Positions 1,170-57,824 of a stretch of 64,000 nt of DNA are shown piece after piece. Source of the DNA: Octopus vulgaris (Eukaryota); assembly GCA_951406725.2 (NCBI GenBank), contig OX597823.1, positions 91,326,001 through 91,390,000 on the forward strand. The letters are read 5' to 3'. Below the pieces are notes generated by a model that did no database searches, was not told where the DNA came from, and worked only from the letters and a program-made list of their open reading frames with translations. Numbering within the stretch: position 1 is the stretch's first letter; every line of letters begins with the position of its first letter. The position numbers were made by a program, and so were the translations under genes.

Positions 1170-2307
1170 AGTCCACTATTTACATTATTTACATTTGACG
1201 GATATTTGTCCTTGTCTTGTTTGTTAACACAACTTTTCAGCTGATATACTCTCCAGCCTTCTTCAGGTGTCTTGAGGAAATTTTGAATTATTATTATCAT
1301 TATTATTATTCAGGTCACTGCCTGGAATTGAACTTGGAATCTTGGGGTTAACCACTAATCCATATGCCCGTGGGCAATTATGGAATGAATTTTAGGGCTT
1401 ATAAATCTAATATTTTCCTATCTTTCCTTAATATGGGTTCCCATATACTATTCATATATGCACTCGGTCTGCTTAGGAGGTTGTTGTGTCCTAGCATATG
1501 TGCTGCTTCTTTTAGTTTTCGTATTTTCCAGTGGTGTTCTCTATCTATTATTTTAACTTCGTCCAACAAGAGTGGGGTCTCCATTTTTCCATACATGATC
1601 AGCTATACCCAATTTATCAATATCTTCTCGTGTCACAGCTTTGCGATGTTCCTCTACCCTTATTTTGAGGGGGCGGCATGTTTCGCCTTTGTATAACCTA
1701 CCACAGCTGCATAGGATGGAGTACATGCAGTTCATAGTTGTATTCTCTTCTATTGGTGATTTTTTCCAAAGGAGATATTTACGAAGTGTTGCATTACTCT
1801 TGAATACTGTCTTGATGTCATAACTTTTGTATCTTTTCAGAGAGGCCGTTCACATAGTGTAGACAGAATGTAGACAGTTTATCGGTTTTATCCCCTCTTT
1901 TCTTCATAACTGGAGTGGAGAGTATGCTTTTGGGGCAGTTGTTACTCAATAGATTGTTACTGAGCTCGATCATTTCTTCGTGGTGGGTATCATGATCGCT
2001 ACTTATATTCTTTGCTCGATATTTTAGGCACTGAACAATTCCTCTCTTAACACTGTATGAATGGTGGGAATTGAAGTTAAGGTATCGTCCAGTGAAGGTC
2101 GGCTTGTGGTATACAGACATCCTGAAACCAACCCTATGGCTGTGATATAGTGATGACACCTTTATTCTCTGGCCCCACCAGGAAGATATCCAAGTGCTGT
2201 TAGATCAAGTGAACTCAATAAAGCCATCCATAGAGTTCACAATGGAAAAGGAAAAAGACAATCAGCTAGCATTCCTGGACATATTAATAACACGCACCAA
2301 GTATGGA
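1170..2307 (-). mobile_element. Penelope-like retroelement (PLE) fragment: RT thumb, GIY-YIG endonuclease and 3' UTR, with an inverted 5' piece
   Basis: Minus-strand ORFs give SVYHKPTFTGRYLNFNSHH, CMYSILCSCGRLYKGETCRPLKIRVEEH (GIY-YIG) and RKLKEAAHM...ILDL* (stop at 1399). The plus strand at 2140-2307 gives DDTFILWPH...FTMEKEKDNQLAFLDILITR. Confidence 0.85.
1226..1271 (-). ncRNA. Minimal hammerhead ribozyme-like motif in PLE 3' UTR (decayed)
   Basis: Minus strand reads gacac-CTGAAGA-a-ggctg(gagagtatat)cagct-GAAA-ag-TT-gtgtt. Stem I is gacac/gtgtt and stem II is gctg/cagc. Confidence 0.6.
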
Positions 2308-2750: not shown

Positions 2751-3127
2751 GGTTGTTAGCTGTGTAGGTTCCTCATGGTAAGTGGCAGAATGAATTTTGT
2801 GTGAATAGTTATTTGTCTATGTACTCTGTTAAACTTTGTTAAATCTTGGTTTGTACTTTTGTATGAAAGTTTTCTCTTTCTTTATCCATGCTTCAACTGT
2901 GATATTCGCTAAACAGAAGTAGAGTGCAAAAAATAATTCACCCAAATTCCAGATCTTCTCATTCTACCCATCTTCAGTGAATACCACAGATGAAGCATGG
3001 ATAAACAACGAAAATGCTTCCATACAAAAGTACAAACTAAGACTTAACAAACTTTAACAAAGTACATACACAAATAGCTATTCACACACAAAATTCATTC
3101 TGCCACTAGTTTCACAACTAACAACCT
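2751..3127. repeat. Imperfect inverted repeat (foldback), arms ~2783-2925 and ~2962-3107
   Basis: agtggcagaatgaattttgtgtgaatag...atccatgcttca is matched by its reverse complement tgaagcatggat...ctattcacacacaaaattcattctgccact. Confidence 0.85.
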
Positions 3128-8430: not shown

Positions 8431-9720
8431 TCATCATCATCATCATCATCATCGTTGTTTAACGTCCGCTTTCCATGCTGGCATGGGTTGGACGATTTGA
8501 CTGAGGACTGGCGAACCAGATAGCTGCACCAGGCTCCAATCTTGATTTGGCAGAGTTTCTACAGCTGGATGCCTTTCCTAACGCCAACCACTCCGAGAGT
8601 GTAGTGAGTGCTTTTACATGCCACCAGCACGAGGGCCAGTCAGGCAGTACTGGTAATGGCCATGAAAAAGTCGTGTTTTTTTTTACGTGTCACCTGCACA
8701 CTGGCACAAGTGCCAGTAAGGCGATGCTGGTAATGATCACGCTCAAATGGTGCTTTTTACATGCCACCGGCATGAACGCCAGTTAGCTGCTCTGGCAATA
8801 ATCATGCTCGGATGGTGCTCTTAGTGCTCCACTATCATGGATGCCAGTCATCGAATTTGATTTAGATTCCGATTTCACTTGCTTCAACAGGTCTTTGCAA
8901 GCAGTGTCTATTGAAGGGAAGTTACGCATAAGTGGGCTGATTACACCCCTGGCTTAGGCTACAAGGTTATGGTCTCACTTGGCCTGCCGGGTCTTTTCAA
9001 GCACAGCATATTTCCAAAATTCTTGGTCACTGGTCATTGCCTCGGTGAGGCCTAATGTTTGAAGGTCGTGCTTCACCACCTCATCCCAGATCTTCCTGAG
9101 TCTACCTCTTCCACAGTTTCCCTCAACTGCTAGGGTGTGACACTTTTTCACGCAGCTATCCTCATCCATTCTCGCTACATGACCATCCCAGTGCAGTCGT
9201 CTCTCTTCCACACCACATCTGATGCTTCTTAAGTCCAACTTTTCTCTCAAGGTACTTACACTCTGTTGAGTATGCACACTGACATTACACATACAGTGGA
9301 GCATACTGGCTTCATTCCTTGTGAGCTTACACATATCCTCAGCAGTCACGGCCCATGTTTCACAGCCATATAGCATGGCTATTCGTACACATGCGTTATA
9401 CAGTCTACCTTTTACTCTGAGCGAGAGGCCCTTTGTCACCAGCAGAGGTAAGAGCTCTATGAACTTTGCCCAGGCTATTCTTATTCTAGCAGCTACACTT
9501 TCAGTGCACCCTCCCCTGCTACTGACTTGGTTACCTAGGTAATGGAAGCTATCAACTACTTCTAGTTTTTCTGCTTGGAATGTGACAGAAGTTGTTCTCG
9601 GCCCATTTTCAGTGTTTATTGCTCCTGAGCATCTGCTGCATACCAAAACTTCCCAGTTAGCCTTCCTTTGATATTGCTGCATCTCTTATGTGTCCATAGC
9701 TTACACTGGGTACATCTTAC
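8431..9720 (-). mobile_element. 5'-truncated RTE-clade LINE: ORF2 C-terminus (8975-9682), 3' UTR and (GAT)n tail
   Basis: The ORF has LEVVDSFHYLG, ARIRIAWAKF, KGRLYNACVRIAMLYGCETW, RLHWDGHVARM and GRGRLRKIW. The 3' end reads gcatggaaagcggacgttaaac followed by (gat)n. Confidence 0.9.
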
Positions 9721-12612: not shown

Positions 12613-13148
12613 TGCCACCCAAGAAGAGAAGGACCCTCCTCAGCCCTCGGACGGCCAAGGCATCGGCTGCTAGGGCTAGAAGGGCACGCGAGACCCACGA
12701 GGAAACCGCCTTGCGCCTCTCGCAAACAGCTTCCCGTTATGCCGCTGCTCAGGCATCTGAAACTACTAGCGACCGTTCTACCCGACTTGCAAGGGTCGCA
12801 GCGTACAGATCTTCCCTCCGCTCGAGGTTGACGAAAGAGCAACAGTCCAGCCAAAACATGCGGGCTTCTTACTGTGCTTCCATCCGCAGAGCTCGCGAGA
12901 ACCCCGAACAAAGGGCCATTCGGAATGCGGCTAACGCCACTAGTACCGCCAGGACACGATCTGTCGAAACCTCACAGCAGAGGAGAACTCGCCAATGTGC
13001 TGACGCCGCAAACAAAGCCATGGCCAAAGCTGCCGAAACACCTCAACAGAGGAGAGCTCGCCAAGCTGCTAACGCCGCAAACAGCCAGGGCTCGATCTGC
13101 CGAAACTCCACACCAACGGACTATTCGGACATCCAGACATGCCATTAG
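12612..13148 (+). CDS. N-terminal part of Helitron RepHel (NLS + 23-aa STPR-like repeats); true frame only to ~13083
   Basis: ATG at 12612 gives MPPKKRR (basic NLS-like), then ETxxxRxxR units with 23-aa periodicity. The repeat continues in the 12874 frame after position 13083. Confidence 0.8.
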   Translation: MPPKKRRTLLSPRTAKASAARARRARETHEETALRLSQTASRYAAAQASETTSDRSTRLARVAAYRSSLRSRLTKEQQSSQNMRASYCASIRRARENPEQRAIRNAANATSTARTRSVETSQQRRTRQCADAANKAMAKAAETPQQRRARQAANAANSQGSICRNSTPTDYSDIQTCH

Positions 13149-16100
13149 CACTGCTTCTGCTAGGGCTTCAGAGGGTGCTGAGGCGAGAGCTGAAAGGCTT
13201 TCAAGGGATGCCACTGCTACCGCTGTCGCACGTGCATCTGAATCTGCTGAGGCACGGTGCACTCGACTTGAGAGTATCAACAAACGTCGGGATATCATTC
13301 GTGGTGTACGTACCCCTGCCCCCGCTTTCTGGTTGTCACTAGCATTCAACTACGACGCCACAATTAACTTCTCCTTGCGTGACGACATCAAGATAGGGTC
13401 AATGACAATTGTATGCCAGTTTTGCAAAGCCAAGAAATGGCCCGGAGAGCCACCTGGTTTGTGCTGCTCTGGTGGCAAAGTGGACCTGCCACCCCTACGG
13501 GAACCACCTCAACCACTGAAGGATCTCGCGGCGGGTTTAACCCCCGATTCGTCACAATTCCTTGAAATAATTCGAAAGTACAACTGCTCATTCCAAATGA
13601 CCTCTTTCGGGGCCAAAATTCCTCCCAGAGAAGGCTGGATGCCTACTTTCAAAGTGCAGGGACAGGTCTACCATCTTATTGGGTCACTTCTGCCAGACGA
13701 GATTCAGCAGTCTTCTTTCCTACAAATATACTTCATTGCCGACTACAACCACCAGGTTGATGCACGCCTTGGAATAATACCGGGTACAAGCTATGTTCCC
13801 CGCAAAGACATTCTTCTCCGTCTCCAAACCATGCTTCATGATATCAACAGCTACGTCTGCAGCTTCAGATATGCCTTGGACAGTGCTCCATCTCCAAACT
13901 TCACCGTTGTCATTGATGCTGATAAACGACCCCACGGGGAGCACGAACGCCGTTTCAACGCACCTGCGTGCAACGAAATTGCCGCAGTCATACACGGAGA
14001 GCAACACAACAGCCGTGACATAATCATCTCCTCCCGTGGTAACAACCTACACAGGATCAGCGAGACTCACAGATCTTATGACGCGCTTCAGTATCCATTG
14101 CTTTTCCCTTATGGGGAAGACGGCTACCACTTCGGAATTCCTTTACGGCAGCCCTTCAATCAAACTACTGCGGCATCAAAGACGGTTTCCTACAGGGCGT
14201 TCTACTCATACCGGTTCATGGTCAGGGAGGGTGAGTTCAACTTATTGCCCCGTTGTCGTCAGCTATTCAACCAGTTCGCCGTCGACATGGCCGCAAAAAT
14301 GGAATCGGAAAGGCTGCTATACATTAAACTTAATCAGACCAAACTTCGCTCCGACTCCTACATTCATCTCCGTGACGGTTTGCAACAAGAAAATGACCCT
14401 CGCAACATCGGCAAGCCATGCATTCTACCCTCCACCTTCACGGGAGGACCGCGATATATGCGTGAAAGGACCCAAGACGCCTTGACCTACGTGCGCATTT
14501 ACGGCCGGCCGGACCTCTTTATCACCTACACGTGCAATCCCAGCTGCGACGAAATCACTCGCGAACGCCTCCCGGGTCAATCTCACACCCATCGACAGGA
14601 CATCGTTGCTTGGGTTTTCCGTCTGAATTTGGGCAAAATGAAGGATTTGATAGTTAAGGGTCAGATTTTCGGGCATGTCAGGTGCCACATGTTTTCGCTC
14701 GAGTGGCAAAAGAGGGGCTTGCCACATGCTCACATCTTAATTTGGCTCACTCATAAAATCGAGACTAATGACATTGACAAATTCATTTCCGCCGAGATTC
14801 CTGACCCCGATGAGGACCCCGGACTCTACGAAATTGTCCGCACTACCATGGTACACGGGCCCTGTGGACCAAATTACGCCAACACACCATGCTACAAAAA
14901 CGGATTAGCCTGCTCAAAGGGATTCCCTAAACGGTTCACTTTGGAGACTCAAACAGGCGGCGATGGGTATCCGCTGTACAAACGAAGGAGTCCAGCCAAT
15001 GGAGGCCGCACGATTACGGTTGGGCGACATCAAGTGGACAACAGCTACATTGTCCCCTACTGTCCTCTCCTGTCGAAGATATTCAAAGCCCACGTCAACG
15101 TTGAGTTCTGCAGTTCCATCAGGTCAATACAATATGTCTGCAAATATATCAACAAAGGCAGCGATGCTGCCATGTTCAGCATCCAGAGGACCACCAGTCG
15201 CGACGAAGTGTCCAACTACTTGGCTGGCCGGTACCTCAGCAGCAACGAAGCGTTTTGGCGCATTTACGGCTTCCCGCTCCATCAGAGACACCCGGCTGTG
15301 GTGCAGCTTGCTGTACACTTGGAAAATGGACAGCGGATTTACTTCACAGAGCAAAGAGCTGTGCAGATAGCCACCAGCCCTAAAGACACAACGTTGACTG
15401 GTTTCTTCAAATTATGCCAACGTGATGACTTCGCTCGAACGCTTTTGTACCCACAGGTCCCATCGTACTTCGTGTGGTCTAAAAACACCTGGGTTCGACG
15501 GAAATCCGGCAAAAACGTCGAAAGCTTCCCAGGCGTCAAGTTTGACTCCTGCCTGGGTCGAGTTTACAACATCCCGCCAAACCAACAAGAATGCTTCTAC
15601 CTCCGTCTCCTTCTACATGAGGTCACTGGTCCAACAGGTTTCGCCAATATACGTACCGTCAATGGGGTTCTGTGCGACACCTTCAGGGAAGCATGTATGA
15701 GACTTGGCCTTCTAGAGGATGACTCCCAGTGGGACGCCACGATGGCAGAGGGTGCTTTACTGCAAACGCATTCGGCCCTACGACATCTTTTCGCAATCCT
15801 TCTTCAAAAATGTCAGCTTAGTGATCCACTAAGTCTCTGGATGAAATACAGGGATGACATGTCGCACGACTTCTTACGTACGGCTCAGCAACACTGCCCT
15901 TCCGCCGAGATCACGTTCACCAACTTCATTTACAATTTTGCGCTCATTCAACTCGAAGACGCTGTCATCGATATGGGTGGGTCTGCTTTAACAGAGTACG
16001 GCCTTCCACCACCCACACGTGAACACGCCAATGTTATGTCTGTTGAATTGTTACGCGAAACTTCCTACTGCATTGAGGAACTGCACCAGTACGTCCAAGA

Positions 16101-17481
16101 TAATGAACCACGGCTGCTTCCAGACCAGCGCATAGCCTACAACACCATCGTAGACTCTGTCAGACAGCAACGTGGGGGGATTTTCTTCCTTGATGCACCC
16201 GGCGGCACTGGCAAAACCTTCGTCACTAAACTAATTCTGGCACAGGTCAGACACAACACGGACATTGCCCTGGCTGTAGCTTCCTCTGGTATCGCGGCCA
16301 CGTTGCTTCCGGGTGGCAGAACCGCCCACTCTGCCTTCAGACTCCCGCTCGATCTGGCAAAGTCCGAGTCACCTATCTGCAACATCGCCAAGAACTCAGA
16401 ACAGGCCGACATTCTGCGCAGATGCAAACTCATCGTATGGGACGAGTGCACTATGGCACACAAAGGCGCCCTTGAGGCACTGGACAGGTCCCTGCAAGAC
16501 ATCAGAGACTCTACGGCCCCCATGGGAGGATTAACTTTACTTCTTTCAGGAGACTTCAGGCAGACTCTACCTGTTATTCCAAAAGGAACCCGTGCCGATG
16601 CCGTGCGCGCGTGCCTTAAGTCGTCAGCTCTTTGGGCACATGTGCGGCCCTTGCACCTCCAAGCTAACATGTGCGCGCAGTTAATTGGTGACAGCGGATC
16701 CGCTGCATTCTCCAGGGACCTCTTATCGCTCGGTGAAAATAGGATGCTGTCTGATGCGGATGGCTACGTTCAATTGGACTCACTTTGCACCATTGTCGAC
16801 ACCCCTGCTATCCTCCGGGACGCTGTCTTCCACGACCTACAAAACAATTTACGCGACCTAAAATGGCTGGCAGGCAGAGCTATTCTCGCACCCAAAAATA
16901 CAACCGTCAACTCCATCAATATCCAGCTACTTGAAGCTATTCCTGGTGATGTCCACGTCTACAAATCTATAGATAGGACAGCAGACCCCGCCCAGCTTGC
17001 CGATTATCCTGTTGAATTCCTGAATTCACTTGAACCGCCAGGCCTGCCACCACACATCCTGAAGTTAAAAGTCGGTGCGCCCATTATGCTCATCAGGAAT
17101 TTGGTTCCACCTAAACAGTGCAACGGCACACGTTTGGTTGTGAAACATTTGGCACCACATTTAATAACGGCCACAATACTTACCGGTTGTGGGAAGGGAG
17201 AGGACGTCTTCATTCCACGGATGCACCTTCAACCGTCGGGCGCTGACCTACCAATCCACTTCAGGCGTTCTCAGTTTCCTGTTAAACTCTGCTTCGCAAT
17301 GTCCATCAATAAATCCCAAGGCCAAACGCTACAAGTCGCTGGGTTACATTTGGGCGAACAGTGCTTCGCCCACGGTCAACTCTACGTGGGCTGTTCACGC
17401 GTTGGGAGGCGCAATGATGTTTTCATGTTTTCGCCCAAACGGACAGCTAGGAACATCGTATATACAGAAGTATTCCAGTGA
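12874..17481 (+). CDS. Helitron RepHel transposase (Zn finger, HUH/Y2 Rep endonuclease, PIF1-family SF1B helicase); biologically meaningful from ~13084
   Basis: Zn finger CQFCKAKKWPGEPPGLCCSGG. Rep motifs PDLFITYTCNP, EWQKRGLPHAHIL and YVCKYINKG. Helicase motifs DAPGGTGKT, GRTAHS, WDECTM, GDFRQTLPV, CNGTRL, AMSINKSQGQTL and HGQLYVGCSRV. Confidence 0.95.
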   Translation: MLPSAELARTPNKGPFGMRLTPLVPPGHDLSKPHSRGELANVLTPQTKPWPKLPKHLNRGELAKLLTPQTARARSAETPHQRTIRTSRHAISTASARASEGAEARAERLSRDATATAVARASESAEARCTRLESINKRRDIIRGVRTPAPAFWLSLAFNYDATINFSLRDDIKIGSMTIVCQFCKAKKWPGEPPGLCCSGGKVDLPPLREPPQPLKDLAAGLTPDSSQFLEIIRKYNCSFQMTSFGAKIPPREGWMPTFKVQGQVYHLIGSLLPDEIQQSSFLQIYFIADYNHQVDARLGIIPGTSYVPRKDILLRLQTMLHDINSYVCSFRYALDSAPSPNFTVVIDADKRPHGEHERRFNAPACNEIAAVIHGEQHNSRDIIISSRGNNLHRISETHRSYDALQYPLLFPYGEDGYHFGIPLRQPFNQTTAASKTVSYRAFYSYRFMVREGEFNLLPRCRQLFNQFAVDMAAKMESERLLYIKLNQTKLRSDSYIHLRDGLQQENDPRNIGKPCILPSTFTGGPRYMRERTQDALTYVRIYGRPDLFITYTCNPSCDEITRERLPGQSHTHRQDIVAWVFRLNLGKMKDLIVKGQIFGHVRCHMFSLEWQKRGLPHAHILIWLTHKIETNDIDKFISAEIPDPDEDPGLYEIVRTTMVHGPCGPNYANTPCYKNGLACSKGFPKRFTLETQTGGDGYPLYKRRSPANGGRTITVGRHQVDNSYIVPYCPLLSKIFKAHVNVEFCSSIRSIQYVCKYINKGSDAAMFSIQRTTSRDEVSNYLAGRYLSSNEAFWRIYGFPLHQRHPAVVQLAVHLENGQRIYFTEQRAVQIATSPKDTTLTGFFKLCQRDDFARTLLYPQVPSYFVWSKNTWVRRKSGKNVESFPGVKFDSCLGRVYNIPPNQQECFYLRLLLHEVTGPTGFANIRTVNGVLCDTFREACMRLGLLEDDSQWDATMAEGALLQTHSALRHLFAILLQKCQLSDPLSLWMKYRDDMSHDFLRTAQQHCPSAEITFTNFIYNFALIQLEDAVIDMGGSALTEYGLPPPTREHANVMSVELLRETSYCIEELHQYVQDNEPRLLPDQRIAYNTIVDSVRQQRGGIFFLDAPGGTGKTFVTKLILAQVRHNTDIALAVASSGIAATLLPGGRTAHSAFRLPLDLAKSESPICNIAKNSEQADILRRCKLIVWDECTMAHKGALEALDRSLQDIRDSTAPMGGLTLLLSGDFRQTLPVIPKGTRADAVRACLKSSALWAHVRPLHLQANMCAQLIGDSGSAAFSRDLLSLGENRMLSDADGYVQLDSLCTIVDTPAILRDAVFHDLQNNLRDLKWLAGRAILAPKNTTVNSINIQLLEAIPGDVHVYKSIDRTADPAQLADYPVEFLNSLEPPGLPPHILKLKVGAPIMLIRNLVPPKQCNGTRLVVKHLAPHLITATILTGCGKGEDVFIPRMHLQPSGADLPIHFRRSQFPVKLCFAMSINKSQGQTLQVAGLHLGEQCFAHGQLYVGCSRVGRRNDVFMFSPKRTARNIVYTEVFQ

Positions 17482-20335: not shown

Positions 20336-21157
20336 AATCATCCTCAAATAATTTTCTGAGTCGGTGAGCTGGAGCTGACAGAATCACTGATCAAAATGCT
20401 TAACATCATTTCGTCTATCTTTATGTTCTGAGTTCAAATTCCTCCACGGTCGACTTTGCTTTTTGTTCTTTCAGGGTCAACAAAAAAAGTACCAGGTATG
20501 CACTGGGATTGATATAATCAACTTGTCCCCTTTTCTGCAATTGCTGGCTTAGTGCCGAAATTTGAGACCAATATTACTTTACTTGGAAAGACTTGAGGGC
20601 TTGCGACAGTTGTAGAAAATATTTGCCTCAATGAATTCTAGGAGACTGATGCAGTCAAGGGAGACTGAATGTTAAACAATGATGATGGTGTGACGAGAAT
20701 TCAATCGTTTAATGTCCAGCTTTGTGATGAGAGAACTTGGTCGAATGTCTTTATGCATCATTTACAATTAGGCTGTCTGTCAATATATGATTATATATGT
20801 CCAACCCTTGCCAGCAAGCAAAATGGACGTTAAGTGATGAAGATGATGATGATGATGATGTTATGTTGTGCTTTGGGTAGAGGAAGGGAGTGGAAGAGGA
20901 GGAGCACAGACACAAACACAAACTCACACACACACACACATGATGGGCTTCTTGCTGTTTCTTTCTACCAAATCCACTCACAAGGCTTTGATCAGCCTGA
21001 GGCTATATTTGAAGACATTTGCCCAAGGTGCTACACAGTGGGTCTGAACCCAGAACCATGTGGTTGGGAAGCAAACTTCTTACCACACAGCCATGCCTGT
21101 ACCAAAAATCACACCTGTGATAAATGTTTCCAAATGACCACTACACTATATGCTCAT

Positions 21158-21458
21158 GAGCATATGGCATAGTGGTTAAGAGCACAGGCTACTAACCTCA
21201 AGATTCCAAGTTCGATTCCAAGCAGTGATCTGAACAATAAAAATAATAATAACAACAACAACAACAACAACAATAACATCGAAAAATACCTTAGGAATGA
21301 GAACCTAGGTTCGAAATTTCCCCAAGACACCTGAAGAAGGCTGGAGGGTATGTCAACCGAAATGTTGTGTTAAACAAGACAAGGACATATGTATTAACAA
21401 CAAACAAGATGATGACAAATATCTGTCGAATGTAAATAATGTAAATAATGTAAATAAA
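21158..21458 (+). mobile_element. Solo PLE 3' cassette: tRNA-like head, (AAT/AAC)n spacer, hammerhead motif, (tgtaaataa)n tail
   Basis: A box tggcatagtgg at 21165 and B box agttcgattcc at 21209. It is colinear with the reverse complement of 1175-1369. Confidence 0.8.
21326..21371 (+). ncRNA. Minimal hammerhead ribozyme-like motif
   Basis: gacac-CTGAAGA-a-ggctg(gagggtatgt)caacc-GAAA-tg-TT-gtgtt. Confidence 0.6.
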
Positions 21459-21862
21459 GTCTTATTCGGTACTTCACCTTTTCTACTAATTCTGTCTCTC
21501 CCTGCCTTTATTTTCTCAGAAATTTCGTAGAGAAATGACCTTGGAACCCAGGGAATAAAATGGCTTTTGAGTTTGGGTTGCTCTCAGCCCCGTCACATGG
21601 CAGTTGTAATTAATTATAATAATTATAATTAATAACAGCAAGTCTAACAATGCTGCATAGATACTAAAAGTGAAGGAGACAAAGGGCTGATTTAATCGAC
21701 CTTCCTGCTTTGTAGGGATAAATTAGATCGAACTAATAGGGCTGAAAGGTAAAAAAATCAATGACACCATTCATAATGTTAATAACAAAAGAAATAACGA
21801 AACAGCAATAGTAATGATCATCGGTTTTATCTAATAATAATAATAACAATAATAACAACAAC

Positions 21863-22139: not shown

Positions 22140-22658
22140 TGCTTCCATTTCTAGCCAAGTGTCTTCCCGACTCCTAGGGCAAAAAAACTCATAGTATACA
22201 TTGGTAGGCCATTAAACTAAACTCACTAGTTCGTTCATTTTTTATTAAGTAAAATTAAAATACATGGGTAGTAATAGTTCTCACATCGACAATGCTCTTC
22301 TCAATACGTATGATGTACCAGTTAAGACAATCTTTTGCACTTCTTGCAGGGATGGTAAGCCAGGGATCATTCTCATATAATTTTCGGTTCCCTCCTTGAT
22401 CATTCCTAATGCTCCTACGATCACTGGTATTGTAACTGCCTTGAGATGCCACATTTTCTCAATTTCAATGAGCAGGTTTTTATATTTTCTGAGCTTGTCA
22501 AACTCTTTCGCCGTGATATTATGATCACAGGGGATGCTCATGTTGATCAATAAGCAAACTTTATTGTTTTGGTCTTTCACAACAATATCCGGTTGATTGG
22601 CTTTGATGGTTCGGTCTGTATGTACTGGAAAGTCCCACAGAATCGTTACATTTTCTTC
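22140..22658 (-). pseudogene. R4/Dong-type non-LTR retrotransposon 3' fragment (restriction-like endonuclease domain), flanked by (AAT)n
   Basis: ILWDFPVHTDRTIKANQPDIVVKD...LINMSIP...EFDKLRKY...IPVIVGALG...QKIVLTGT matches the PD-D..K REL motif. Confidence 0.85.
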
Positions 22659-22660
22659 TA

Positions 22661-22711
<51 letters not shown>

Positions 22712-55404: not shown

Positions 55405-55908
55405 GGTCATTGAAAATGAGAAAGCAACCATACTATGGGATATGCGAATACATACAGATAGAGAAATTAAGACTAATAGGCCAGATATAGTTGTCAGAGA
55501 TCATGAAGGAAAAAAATGCTTTCTAATTGATGTATCAATACTAACAGATGACAATGTTTCTCTAAAAGAAATGGAGAAACTTTCAAAATACAAAGATCTG
55601 GAAATAGAGGTAACTCAAATGTGGAATCTAAAAACAGAAACAATTCCTAATACACCACGGTATTTTTATCATATACTTATGTATGTGTGTGTGTGTGTGT
55701 TTGTGTGCATAATACATAACAAAAACACCAGGACTAACTAATATATATAACATACAGAAAATAGCACTACTAGGCACCGCACACATCCTACTTAAAGCAC
55801 TCTCAATGCAGTAACAATAAGAGCATCACAACAAACCACAGTACATACCCACAGCATACAGAGCTGCACTCATTAGTGCAGTGAAAGCACATTATAAAAA
55901 TAAGACTA

Positions 55909-55966
<58 letters not shown>

Positions 55967-56930
55967 TTCATAATAATAATAATAATAATAATAATGATAA
56001 TAATAACAATAATATTTCAGACAGATTGTGTAATTGAACCCTGTCAGCAGATATTGTCATATTAAATAAGAGAGAGACAAATACTGTCAGATCATTGATG
56101 TAGCCATACCAAATGACATGAATGTTGTGAGTAAAGAGGTTGAAAAAAATCACCAAGTACTCCGAATTGAAAGTGGAAATGGCAAGACTGTATGGAATGT
56201 GAGAGGGTAATGTAAAAGTGATACCAGTGGTGATTGGAGCTTTGGGCTCAATCTCATTGAAACTTCAAGACTTCTTAAGGCAACTGGAAATCCCATGCAA
56301 GATTGATGTCTTGCAAAAAGCAGCCTTATTGGGTACGGCGCACATCTTAAGGAAAGTATCCTCTGTCTGAGGTCCTTGTTGGTGATTTGACAGATGACTA
56401 AAGACTGGTGCATTGCTATCTTACACTGTGTTACGAAGGAATAATAATAATAATAATAATAATAATAGCAAAAGTAATAATGGAATTTGGAATCAAGAAG
56501 TGCGGAGTAGTCTACCTAAAAAGAAGCAAGGTACAGTCCCTAGCAGGGATAGAATTACTGAATAGAGATTTGATTAGAGTGCAGTGAGTTAATGGAAAAG
56601 AAAATGAAAGAACAACTGAGGACGGAGTATTTCCGAAGACTGAAGTTGGTGTTACAATCAAAATTTTACTGGATGGAATGAAATCCAAGCAGTTAATATG
56701 AGGGCGAAAGCATCACTTCGGTATGGAGCAGGAATTATTAAATGGAAAACGAGAGAAGTGAAGAAATTGGATACCAAGACCAGAACAATGTTGACAGTAC
56801 ATGGAGCCTTCCACCCTAAGAGTGACACTGATAGATTGTACTTGTCCAGAGGAAAGGGTGGAAGAGGTTTGATCAGTTGTTTGGACTGTATTGAAGCAGA
56901 GGAAATCAGCCTAGGGTTGTATATAAAAAA
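55405..56930 (+). pseudogene. Three successive R4/Dong-type fragments (55405-55912, 56015-56440, 56478-56930) separated by (AAT)n
   Basis: TILWDMRIHTDREIKTNRPDIVV...LIDVSI...EMEKLSKYKDL; IDVAIPND...IPVVIGALG...LQKAALLGTAHILRKV; EFGIKKC, LRYGAGIIKW...HGAFHPKSDTDRLYLSRGKGGRGL. Confidence 0.85.
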
Positions 56931-57824
56931 TGATGATTTTGATAGTGATGATGATGATGATGATAATGATGATAATGAAGATGATGAAAATGTTGATAAA
57001 GGTGATAAGCCCAGTCATTTATGTGGGGGCAGCAAGTCAATCACATAAACCCCTTCCCCCCAGTGCCCAGCTGGTACTTTATTATATTTACCCTGAGAGG
57101 ACGAAAGGTGAAGTTGACTTCAGTGAGATTTGAACTCAGAATATAATGAGTTTGAGGAAGAAATGGCATTTTGTACGATGTGCTAACGACTCTACAAGCT
57201 CACTGCTATAACAACAACAACAACAACAACATCAACAACAAAAACAACAACAATAATAATAACAACAACAACAACAACAACAACAATAAAAAATTAAAAT
57301 TATAACAAAAACAAAAAAAATAATGATAATTATTATTATTATAACAATGGTGGCAATGATAACGACAATGATTACAATTATTATGATGTTGATGATGATG
57401 ATGACGATGATAATCACAGCAACAATGACAATAAAGTCAGTGATGATGATGGCGACAATGGTAGTGATGGTGGTGATGATGACAACCACATTAACAAAAA
57501 TGATGATGGTGATGGTGATGCTGGTGAACATTAACCCTGATGGTGATAATGATTTTGGGGGCATAACAATGTTGATGGTTATACTACAAACGATACAACC
57601 ACCAGTAATGGTGATTTTAACACTGACGATCTTTCAGTGATTAATTAACACAAACATCAAAGTGGAAAGAGTTAGTCATGACACACATGCATATAACTGT
57701 GCCATTAGATAGTAGAGATTAGCAGAGAATGGGAAGAAAAATCACAATGAAAAAGCCCTGAAATCAACCAATAATATGTAAATGCAGCATGTGTTATCTG
57801 AGGGACAAAACGTTGAAACACGTC

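Follow-up and report, generated by a model that had tools for sequence, protein, structure and literature searches.

Analysis of a 64,000-nucleotide stretch of Octopus vulgaris DNA, here called the window, reveals a decayed Penelope-like element (PLE) whose 3' end carries a tRNA-like head and an (AAT)n spacer ahead of a minimal hammerhead motif, together with a second copy of this cassette that stands free of coding sequence. The head is a family-wide feature and not a private insertion. The explanation that we prefer, with moderate confidence, is that an old tRNA-derived SINE head was captured into a Penelope pseudo-LTR and that the solo copies arose by truncation and fold-back. This reading is based on the architecture common to both copies, the conservation of the head at the family level, its linkage to the end of the ORF and a sharp 3' end.

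The linked and the solo cassette

The features of the two copies are as follows.

2113–2307, plus strand: RT core (YVDD-region) piece, inverted with respect to the rest of the linked element (tblastn with P0154)
1399–2129, minus strand: decayed RT thumb, linker and C-terminal GIY-YIG endonuclease (tblastn with P0154, E 5e-59)
1370–1398, minus strand: 29-nt spacer from stop codon to head (fold; contig coverage)
1297–1369, minus strand: tRNA-like head (to ~1313) running into (AAT)n; A box 1362–1352, B box 1333–1324
1271–1226, minus strand: minimal type-I hammerhead of the linked copy (descriptor), predicted cut between 1231 and 1230
1177–1225, minus strand: segment behind the hammerhead with a tail of 9-nt repeats; the family has its 3' end at 1177
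21137–21156, minus strand: mirror (inverted duplicate) of the solo copy's own head, without spacer, 85% complementary over 20 nt
21158–21230, plus strand: solo tRNA-like head, with A box 21165–21175, loop CTACTAA 21189–21195, B box 21210–21219
21233–21325, plus strand: (AAT/AAC)n spacer (21233–21278), followed by a unique middle segment of which the linked copy has lost most
21326–21371, plus strand: minimal type-I hammerhead of the solo copy (descriptor), predicted cut between 21366 and 21367
21372–21457, plus strand: local 30-nt duplication, then the tail (AATGTAAAT)x3.2, the 9-nt tail lying at 21429–21457

The order of stop codon, tRNA-like segment, AAT spacer, hammerhead and tail, proposed in an earlier note on this DNA, is borne out on the minus strand from 1399 to about 1177, and the ORF-less cassette that it placed at 21158–21458 is indeed present, on the plus strand and ending at 21457. 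BLASTN matches the two copies in three blocks (E 1e-23, 5e-17 and 8e-14) and detects no further one in the window. Identical residues occupy 54 of 62 columns in the head and spacer and 101 of 114 in the rest of the cassette, and identity falls to 15/30 in the upstream and 7/19 in the downstream flank. The linked copy, in which the A box has one mismatch and the (AAT)n spacer lies at about 1312–1288, lacks 16 nt of the head and some 54 columns of the middle segment; these losses escaped the earlier description, which had the layout right. The linked copy is thus the more damaged of the two. The solo copy contains no ORF, and what it has in common with the coding element is the head as well as the 3' end, which sets the two apart from an ordinary SINE–LINE pair. 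No target-site duplication longer than 5 nt was found at the solo copy. The first T4 run beyond its tail is at 21479–21482, and in both copies a T4 run lies just past the tail.

Comparison with full-length relatives (tblastn) shows a single decayed Penelope-like insertion that occupies the minus strand between about 2330 and 1177, with the reverse transcriptase (RT) followed by the C-terminal GIY-YIG endonuclease, collinear with the relatives. The RT core piece matches P0154 at 61.5% over 65 residues (E 3e-20) and, to judge from its orientation, is a 5' inversion of the linked copy with a junction to ~2330. The coding piece 1399–2129 is 76% identical to an Octopus sinensis LOC protein, its best named protein matches being from Octopus; the frame is broken twice, near 1821–1828 and 1563–1577, and the GIY-YIG frame ends in the stop TAA at 1401–1399. 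In the endonuclease alignment (A2) the CxC, R, E, H and H residues are near-invariant, and C165, C167, H186 and H210 are at least 90% conserved, so that the CCHH motif is present. Inspection of the translation by eye shows a linker without the extra CX2-5CxxC zinc finger. No Pfam family was matched by the coding pieces of the window alone; full-length relatives carry RVT_1 and, weakly (E 0.017), GIY-YIG. A CCHH endonuclease and the absence of an additional linker finger are the clade criteria given for Penelope/Poseidon (PMC8557442), and we infer an EN+ Penelope-like element that fits this clade, as placed by motifs rather than by an RT tree. Both a hammerhead in the pseudo-LTR and truncated or inverted insertions, which are EN+ PLE traits, are found here. 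The cassette forms the 3' end, or pseudo-LTR, of this abundant coding element of Penelope/Poseidon type. Behind the hammerhead, the sequence MRTNIRQM was considered as a possible start of the ORF and set aside, the comparison by eye with 12 long relatives being unconvincing.

The window contains several other elements. A fragment of a second PLE family, at 2330–2780 on the minus strand and 2781–3107, adjoins the first; it is 68–69% identical to O. bimaculoides LOC proteins, contains a 327-nt mirror repeat of 80% identity and, going by its motifs, may be Neptune-like. The plus strand at 12832–17481 holds an intact open frame of 1,549 aa that by eye looks like a Helitron Rep/PIF1 helicase; it is richer in GC than its surroundings and is possibly a young element. 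A different and very common tRNA-like SINE head occurs at 20940–21098 (minus), 29101 (minus), 55090 (plus) and elsewhere, and one such head stands head-to-head with the solo cassette at a distance of ~40 nt. Fragments resembling the C-terminal part of LINE RTs were noted by eye at 8975–9685 and 22281–22661 on the minus strand and at 55406–55741 and 56644–57048 on the plus strand.

The hammerhead, the 3' end and the head across the family

In order to obtain the family-level picture, four public runs, all made up of contigs, were matched to positions 1100–2260 at 80% likeness. Three DNA runs carrying three organism labels gave 19,743, 18,611 and 16,931 matching contigs, and a fourth run (X15), taken as RNA only by guess and so not counted as a sign of expression, gave 1,989. 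The results described here cover 24 of 1,852 loose-end rows, 15 of 128 and 12 of 47 joint rows (27 of 175), and 32 of 57,700 pieces. Contig depth does not rise at the head and is highest at the tail; it was given no weight, as it cannot rank the parts of the cassette and the reference is damaged at the head.

The hammerhead descriptor, which was drawn up with the sequences in view, matches only the two places listed above, compared with 0.02 matches per shuffled window in 100 dinucleotide shuffles. The minimum free energy (MFE) fold of the linked hammerhead yields stems I and II; in the solo copy one pair of stem II is broken and the MFE fold is not a hammerhead. In both window copies stem II and the palindromic loop have been altered by substitutions, and cofolding of these mutated sequences gave no active dimer fold. 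Covariance models, which the earlier note had put forward as the check on both the tRNA-like part and the ribozyme, detect neither with Rfam at E ≤ 10: the hammerhead model matches neither copy, and a control hammerhead from a distant Penelope family (L005/L006, see below) is likewise missed by Rfam at E ≤ 0.1. The loose ends of the family contigs are more telling. At 1225, contigs numbering 230, 276, 226 and 39 in the four runs continue into an unbroken five-pair base of stem II and a palindromic AACGUU core, such as has been described for the minimal hammerheads of PLEs (PMC4209133), and the resulting family consensus has the CUGANGA and GAAA cores, stems I and II, the palindromic loop 3 and the NUH site. 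Read as sequence, this consensus is a textbook minimal type-I hammerhead.

The 3' end of the family is sharp. At 1177, 444, 524, 382 and 55 contigs of the four runs leave the element into unrelated sequence (agreement 0.45–0.53; median length 255 in the DNA runs), and this end lies 54 nt beyond the predicted cleavage site. Because the copies run 54 nt past that site, their templates were uncleaved, and a self-cleaved RNA reaching from the tRNA head to the GUU site, such as the earlier note suggested looking for, cannot have been the template of these copies.

As to the tRNA-like head, loose ends at 1350 supply the 16 nt missing from the linked copy: 99, 127, 90 and 20 contigs carry them, leading to an intact A box (TGGCGTAGTGG). 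Position 1385, in the spacer between stop codon and head, is covered by 122, 125, 124 and 63 contigs, counted among at most 128 per run, and the contigs over this position reach up to 38–63 letters to the contig end in the DNA runs; one record of run X15 (17) bridges 1348–1527 with 23 differences. It follows from this coverage and this record that the head is joined to the ORF in other copies too, and a one-off SINE insertion, which the earlier note had itself raised against its proposal, does not describe a head that belongs to the family consensus. An O. vulgaris protein, P0078, begins with the antisense tail fused to the same endonuclease, an arrangement matching two opposite-strand joints from tail to ORF among the joints listed. 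The antisense frame across the junction of head and ORF, used as a query, gave no match. A joint in run X4 (1391 to 1348) contains a locally duplicated, shortened variant of the head with 39 extra letters and a B-box-like stretch; this variant may mark an older head subfamily.

What the head is has to be judged from its boxes. ARAGORN detected no tRNA at the cassettes, and focused scans with the Rfam tRNA model gave no match at E ≤ 10, even with an 81-nt query; among 150 of 257 rows, Rfam on the whole window gave miRNA matches driven by microsatellites. A search of phage DNA with the head yielded 10 matches at chance level, none on a tRNA. With our own descriptors, written after the sequences had been inspected, an A and B box pair is found in the window in the solo copy only, against 0.02 per window in 100 dinucleotide shuffles, none of which had this pair and the hammerhead jointly. 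The anticodon-type loop and the B box of the solo copy follow the T of the A box by 24 and 45 nt, the distances from tRNA position 8 to positions 32 and 53. Pairing is partly lost in the D, T and acceptor stems of the solo head, and no cloverleaf fold is obtained (z −0.47 and 0.66). The head thus looks like that of a SINE rather than a tRNA gene, and the case for its tRNA origin is made by the sequence of the boxes and their exact spacing. SINEBase regards boxes by themselves as an indication and not as proof, and asks that 60 nt or more match a tRNA with an identity of 60% or higher and, of a SINE, that it be short, interspersed and present in at least 100 copies (PMC3531059). The octopus sequence is abundant when solo and ORF-linked copies are taken together. 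The absence of T4 runs inside the cassette is expected by chance (P 0.66–0.76) and so lends no support to Pol III. The intact A and B boxes probably still permit short Pol III RNAs from the pseudo-LTR, although no observation calls for such RNAs as the main template. Pol III transcription of the whole element was rejected, there being two T4 runs in the RT piece and no T4 depletion.

Among relatives, a sister family with about 50–60% protein identity (ENA proteins) has a homologous hammerhead, read from spurious read-through translations (P0018, P0019, P0021, P0104, P0129 and P0145). In P0104, two residue changes imply that one pair of stem II would differ on both sides. The spacer from stop codon to hammerhead measures ~200 nt in the present family versus ~33 codons (~100 nt) in P0104; the box test in the sister family, made by back-translation, is passed at ≤1 mismatch by 276 of 300 shuffled peptides and so does not discriminate. 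Protein-based locus searches were confirmed at 0 of 79 viral, 7 of 182 metagenome and 0 of 20 prokaryote genome loci, and a hammerhead-flank pattern had no match in viral and metagenome contigs. The seven metagenome loci are distant (27–47%); six of them look like one family, and the hammerhead is found in L005 and L006 only. In these two loci, which belong to an unrelated Penelope family of a metagenome assembly, a clean minimal hammerhead (L005:1150–1192 and L006:3398–3440) lies ~50 nt after the stop codon, with no A and B pair. The spacer lengths, from this thin sampling, fit a lineage-specific insertion of the head and (AAT)n. A GTTCGA-like motif stands shortly upstream of the hammerhead at 21300–21311 of the window and at about 1132–1140 of L005, and apparently also in the sister family (P0018/P0104/P0145, deduced from the read-through proteins); this could reflect either a loop conserved in Poseidon pseudo-LTRs or a B-box-like element in them.

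Origin of the solo copies

The earlier note placed the start of the solo head correctly at 21158 and overlooked the 20-nt mirror that precedes it. This mirror scores 11 when aligned to its own head, against 3 for the linked spacer, and is the sole one of its kind in the window outside low-complexity DNA. In the linked copy the 3' part of the spacer pairs with the start of the head in a hairpin centred at 1371–1370 (fold z only −1.5), and the solo mirror is centred where the linked copy has this natural hairpin. Mirror or inversion structures are also present in the linked copy and in the adjoining second PLE, and inverted 5' copies are typical of PLE insertions (PMC8557442, section 6). Among the loose-end rows listed, 5' ends do not accumulate where the head begins, although damage to the reference could conceal such a pile. 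Four of the joints listed connect the tail region with an upstream start, three of them starting inside the ORF (1520, 1568 and 1625) and one at 1376, 7 nt ahead of the head; in addition, an X1 contig (1350 to 1452) has the head from its position +1 joined to ORF position 1452. Three junctions therefore lie within 7 nt of the head start, namely the solo copy, X1 1376 to 1180 and X1 1350 to 1452. The solo copy and the last of these have a head variant starting with GAGCAT that is absent from the linked copy. Such a cluster would be predicted equally by a Pol III start and by fold-back of the cDNA at the hairpin. The solo copy does have ends of PLE type, in support of the mobilisation by a PLE that the earlier note suggested, but its 5' end is more simply read as a hairpin fold-back.

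According to the captured-head explanation that we prefer, a small SINE, as the simplest case of a tRNA-derived head ending in (AAT)n, would have inserted in the family ancestor between the stop codon, at a distance of ~30 nt, and the usual minimal hammerhead, and its amplification as part of the element would have followed. By analogy with PLE biology, the RT/GIY-YIG protein would copy uncleaved RNA starting ~54 nt downstream of the hammerhead cut, and copies would halt at variable 5' points, often with 5' inversion. The solo copy would be an insertion that halted at the hairpin before the head and folded back, leaving the 20-nt mirror, and the hammerhead would be expected to cut only as a dimer or with the help of protein. 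In the Poseidon element of Anolis, the RT begins to copy at an internal point of the RNA, beyond the hammerhead, and requires the first 172 nt of the ORF; most of the template is uncleaved, and cleavage by the ribozyme depends on protein (PMC11167929). An uncleaved template of this kind agrees with the octopus family, whose sharp end lies past the cut site. With the Anolis mechanism, solo copies would be dead ends and a Pol III source would have to be a pseudo-LTR followed by an ORF start. What speaks against the captured head is that three junctions within 7 nt of its start are more than random stops easily give, that a 5' pile is possibly hidden (24 of 1,852 loose-end and 27 of 175 joint rows, on a damaged reference), and that a free SINE of head and (AAT)n was not seen and the Rfam tRNA model had no match.

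The same junctions can be explained, more tentatively, by a SINE mobilised by Penelope itself, in which Pol III would start near the head in an upstream pseudo-LTR (in tandem elements or cassettes) and read through the hammerhead as far as the RT-binding region, and the parental RT would retrotranspose the uncleaved short RNA into many solo copies with a defined 5' end. It is conceivable, though we regard it as doubtful, that an autonomous Penelope element acts in this way as its own SINE source gene by means of a captured tRNA promoter in the upstream pseudo-LTR. An intact consensus A box and a B box at tRNA spacing amid decayed cloverleaf stems make up a pattern of promoter retention, and the three junctions, the GAGCAT variant common to the solo copy and X1 1350-to-1452, the T4 run just beyond both tails and the precedent of Pol III with a hammerhead in Schistosoma (reviewed in PMC6765202) all point the same way. 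Yet the loose ends listed form no pile at the head start, many contigs have ORF-side sequence 5' of the head, the T4 absence within the cassette is expected by chance and, if the Anolis result holds, the RT depends on RNA that lies beyond the integrated 3' end, so that solo copies would not be source genes. Quite unlikely, in our view, is a non-LTR retrozyme, for which cassette tandems would be transcribed, cut into monomers by dimeric hammerheads, circularised and re-inserted. The hammerhead consensus is the minimal form of dimer type (PMC4209133), animal retrozymes derive from pseudo-LTRs (bioRxiv 2026.07.22.740005), and X1 1376 to 1180 (summed depth 248) connects the tail with a unit whose start precedes the head by 7 nt; but this possible tandem joint is one row in one run with its orientation deduced, both window copies are monomers and not the tandem units by which retrozymes are recognised, and the family ends at 1177 and not at the cleavage site. 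We consider it very unlikely that the head is not derived from a tRNA or is a private insertion, the locus then being an ordinary decayed Penelope fragment. The silence of ARAGORN and Rfam, even with the 81-nt query, the missing cloverleaf fold and the caution of SINEBase about boxes would agree with this, but the A box, anticodon-type loop and B box lie at exact tRNA offsets, a box pair has a chance of 0.02 per shuffled window, and both copies as well as the four-run consensus contain the head.

Comparison with known systems

With the Penelope/Poseidon pseudo-LTRs described previously (Cervera and de la Pena 2014, PMC4209133; Frangieh et al. 2024, PMC11167929), the octopus element shares the C-terminal GIY-YIG with CCHH, the minimal type-I hammerhead with an extra base before stem II and a palindromic loop 3, and the 3' end downstream of the cut with 5' truncation and inversion. 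It differs from them in the tRNA-like head with A and B boxes and the (AAT)n between stop codon and hammerhead; the accessible portions of the two papers contain no description of such a head, and the D. virilis promoter has been described as LINE-like and TATA-less (PMC2377424). The Sm-alpha repeats of Schistosoma have the same succession of a Pol III-type promoter and a type-I hammerhead (PMC6765202, PMC8490949), but are often in tandem and without a visible autonomous parent, whereas the octopus unit is part of an ORF-bearing element and monomeric in the window. A Pol III promoter derived from a small RNA likewise stands in the terminal repeat of the TRIMp3 elements Helenus, Ajax and Cassandra, for which an origin by SINE insertion into the terminal repeat has been proposed (Kojima 2024, PMC10886601). 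As LTR elements, though non-autonomous ones, these possess PBS, PPT and TSDs (PMC10886601), in contrast to the octopus cassette, a Penelope pseudo-LTR on a coding element, which contains a ribozyme and lacks a TSD. Animal non-LTR retrozymes (PMC7229834; bioRxiv 10.64898/2026.07.22.740005) are similar in being short non-coding units derived from PLE pseudo-LTRs, with a type-I hammerhead and common monomer copies; they are defined by tandem units and circular RNAs, and the octopus cassette is known here from contigs and, in the window, from two monomers. A Pol III head is not mentioned for them in the accessible text of these two sources. In cephalopods, 235 hammerhead-1 matches have been reported from the giant squid (PMC6962438). 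The partners of SINEs are LINEs by the definition of SINEBase (PMC3531059), and full-text literature searches, in which most papers were judged by their titles and the opening of their abstracts, brought up neither a tRNA-derived head in a Penelope pseudo-LTR nor a Penelope-mobilised tRNA SINE; Repbase, Dfam or SINEBase may already list the family. The word "hammerhead" does not occur in the O. vulgaris annotation supplement (PMC13282606), nor do two short motifs of the family occur in the supplement of Craig 2021 (PMC8557442).

A hammerhead in the pseudo-LTR was thus already known; the new part is the built-in tRNA-like promoter, which is the Penelope counterpart of TRIMp3. Were the head a mere passenger, it would be a modest curiosity. 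If Penelope does mobilise the cassette, this would be a tRNA SINE not yet detached from its parent, and it would show how Pol III/hammerhead repeats of the Sm-alpha type might originate. Fragments of this kind may be counted as SINEs or tRNA pseudogenes in genome annotation. A stable tRNA-derived head in a coding Penelope family, numerous in several related genomes, takes terminal-repeat Pol III promoters, described before from LTR-type TRIMs, to a third class of retroelements, and it raises the questions of whether a Penelope RT can mobilise Pol III RNA and whether Sm-alpha-like repeats come from pseudo-LTRs.
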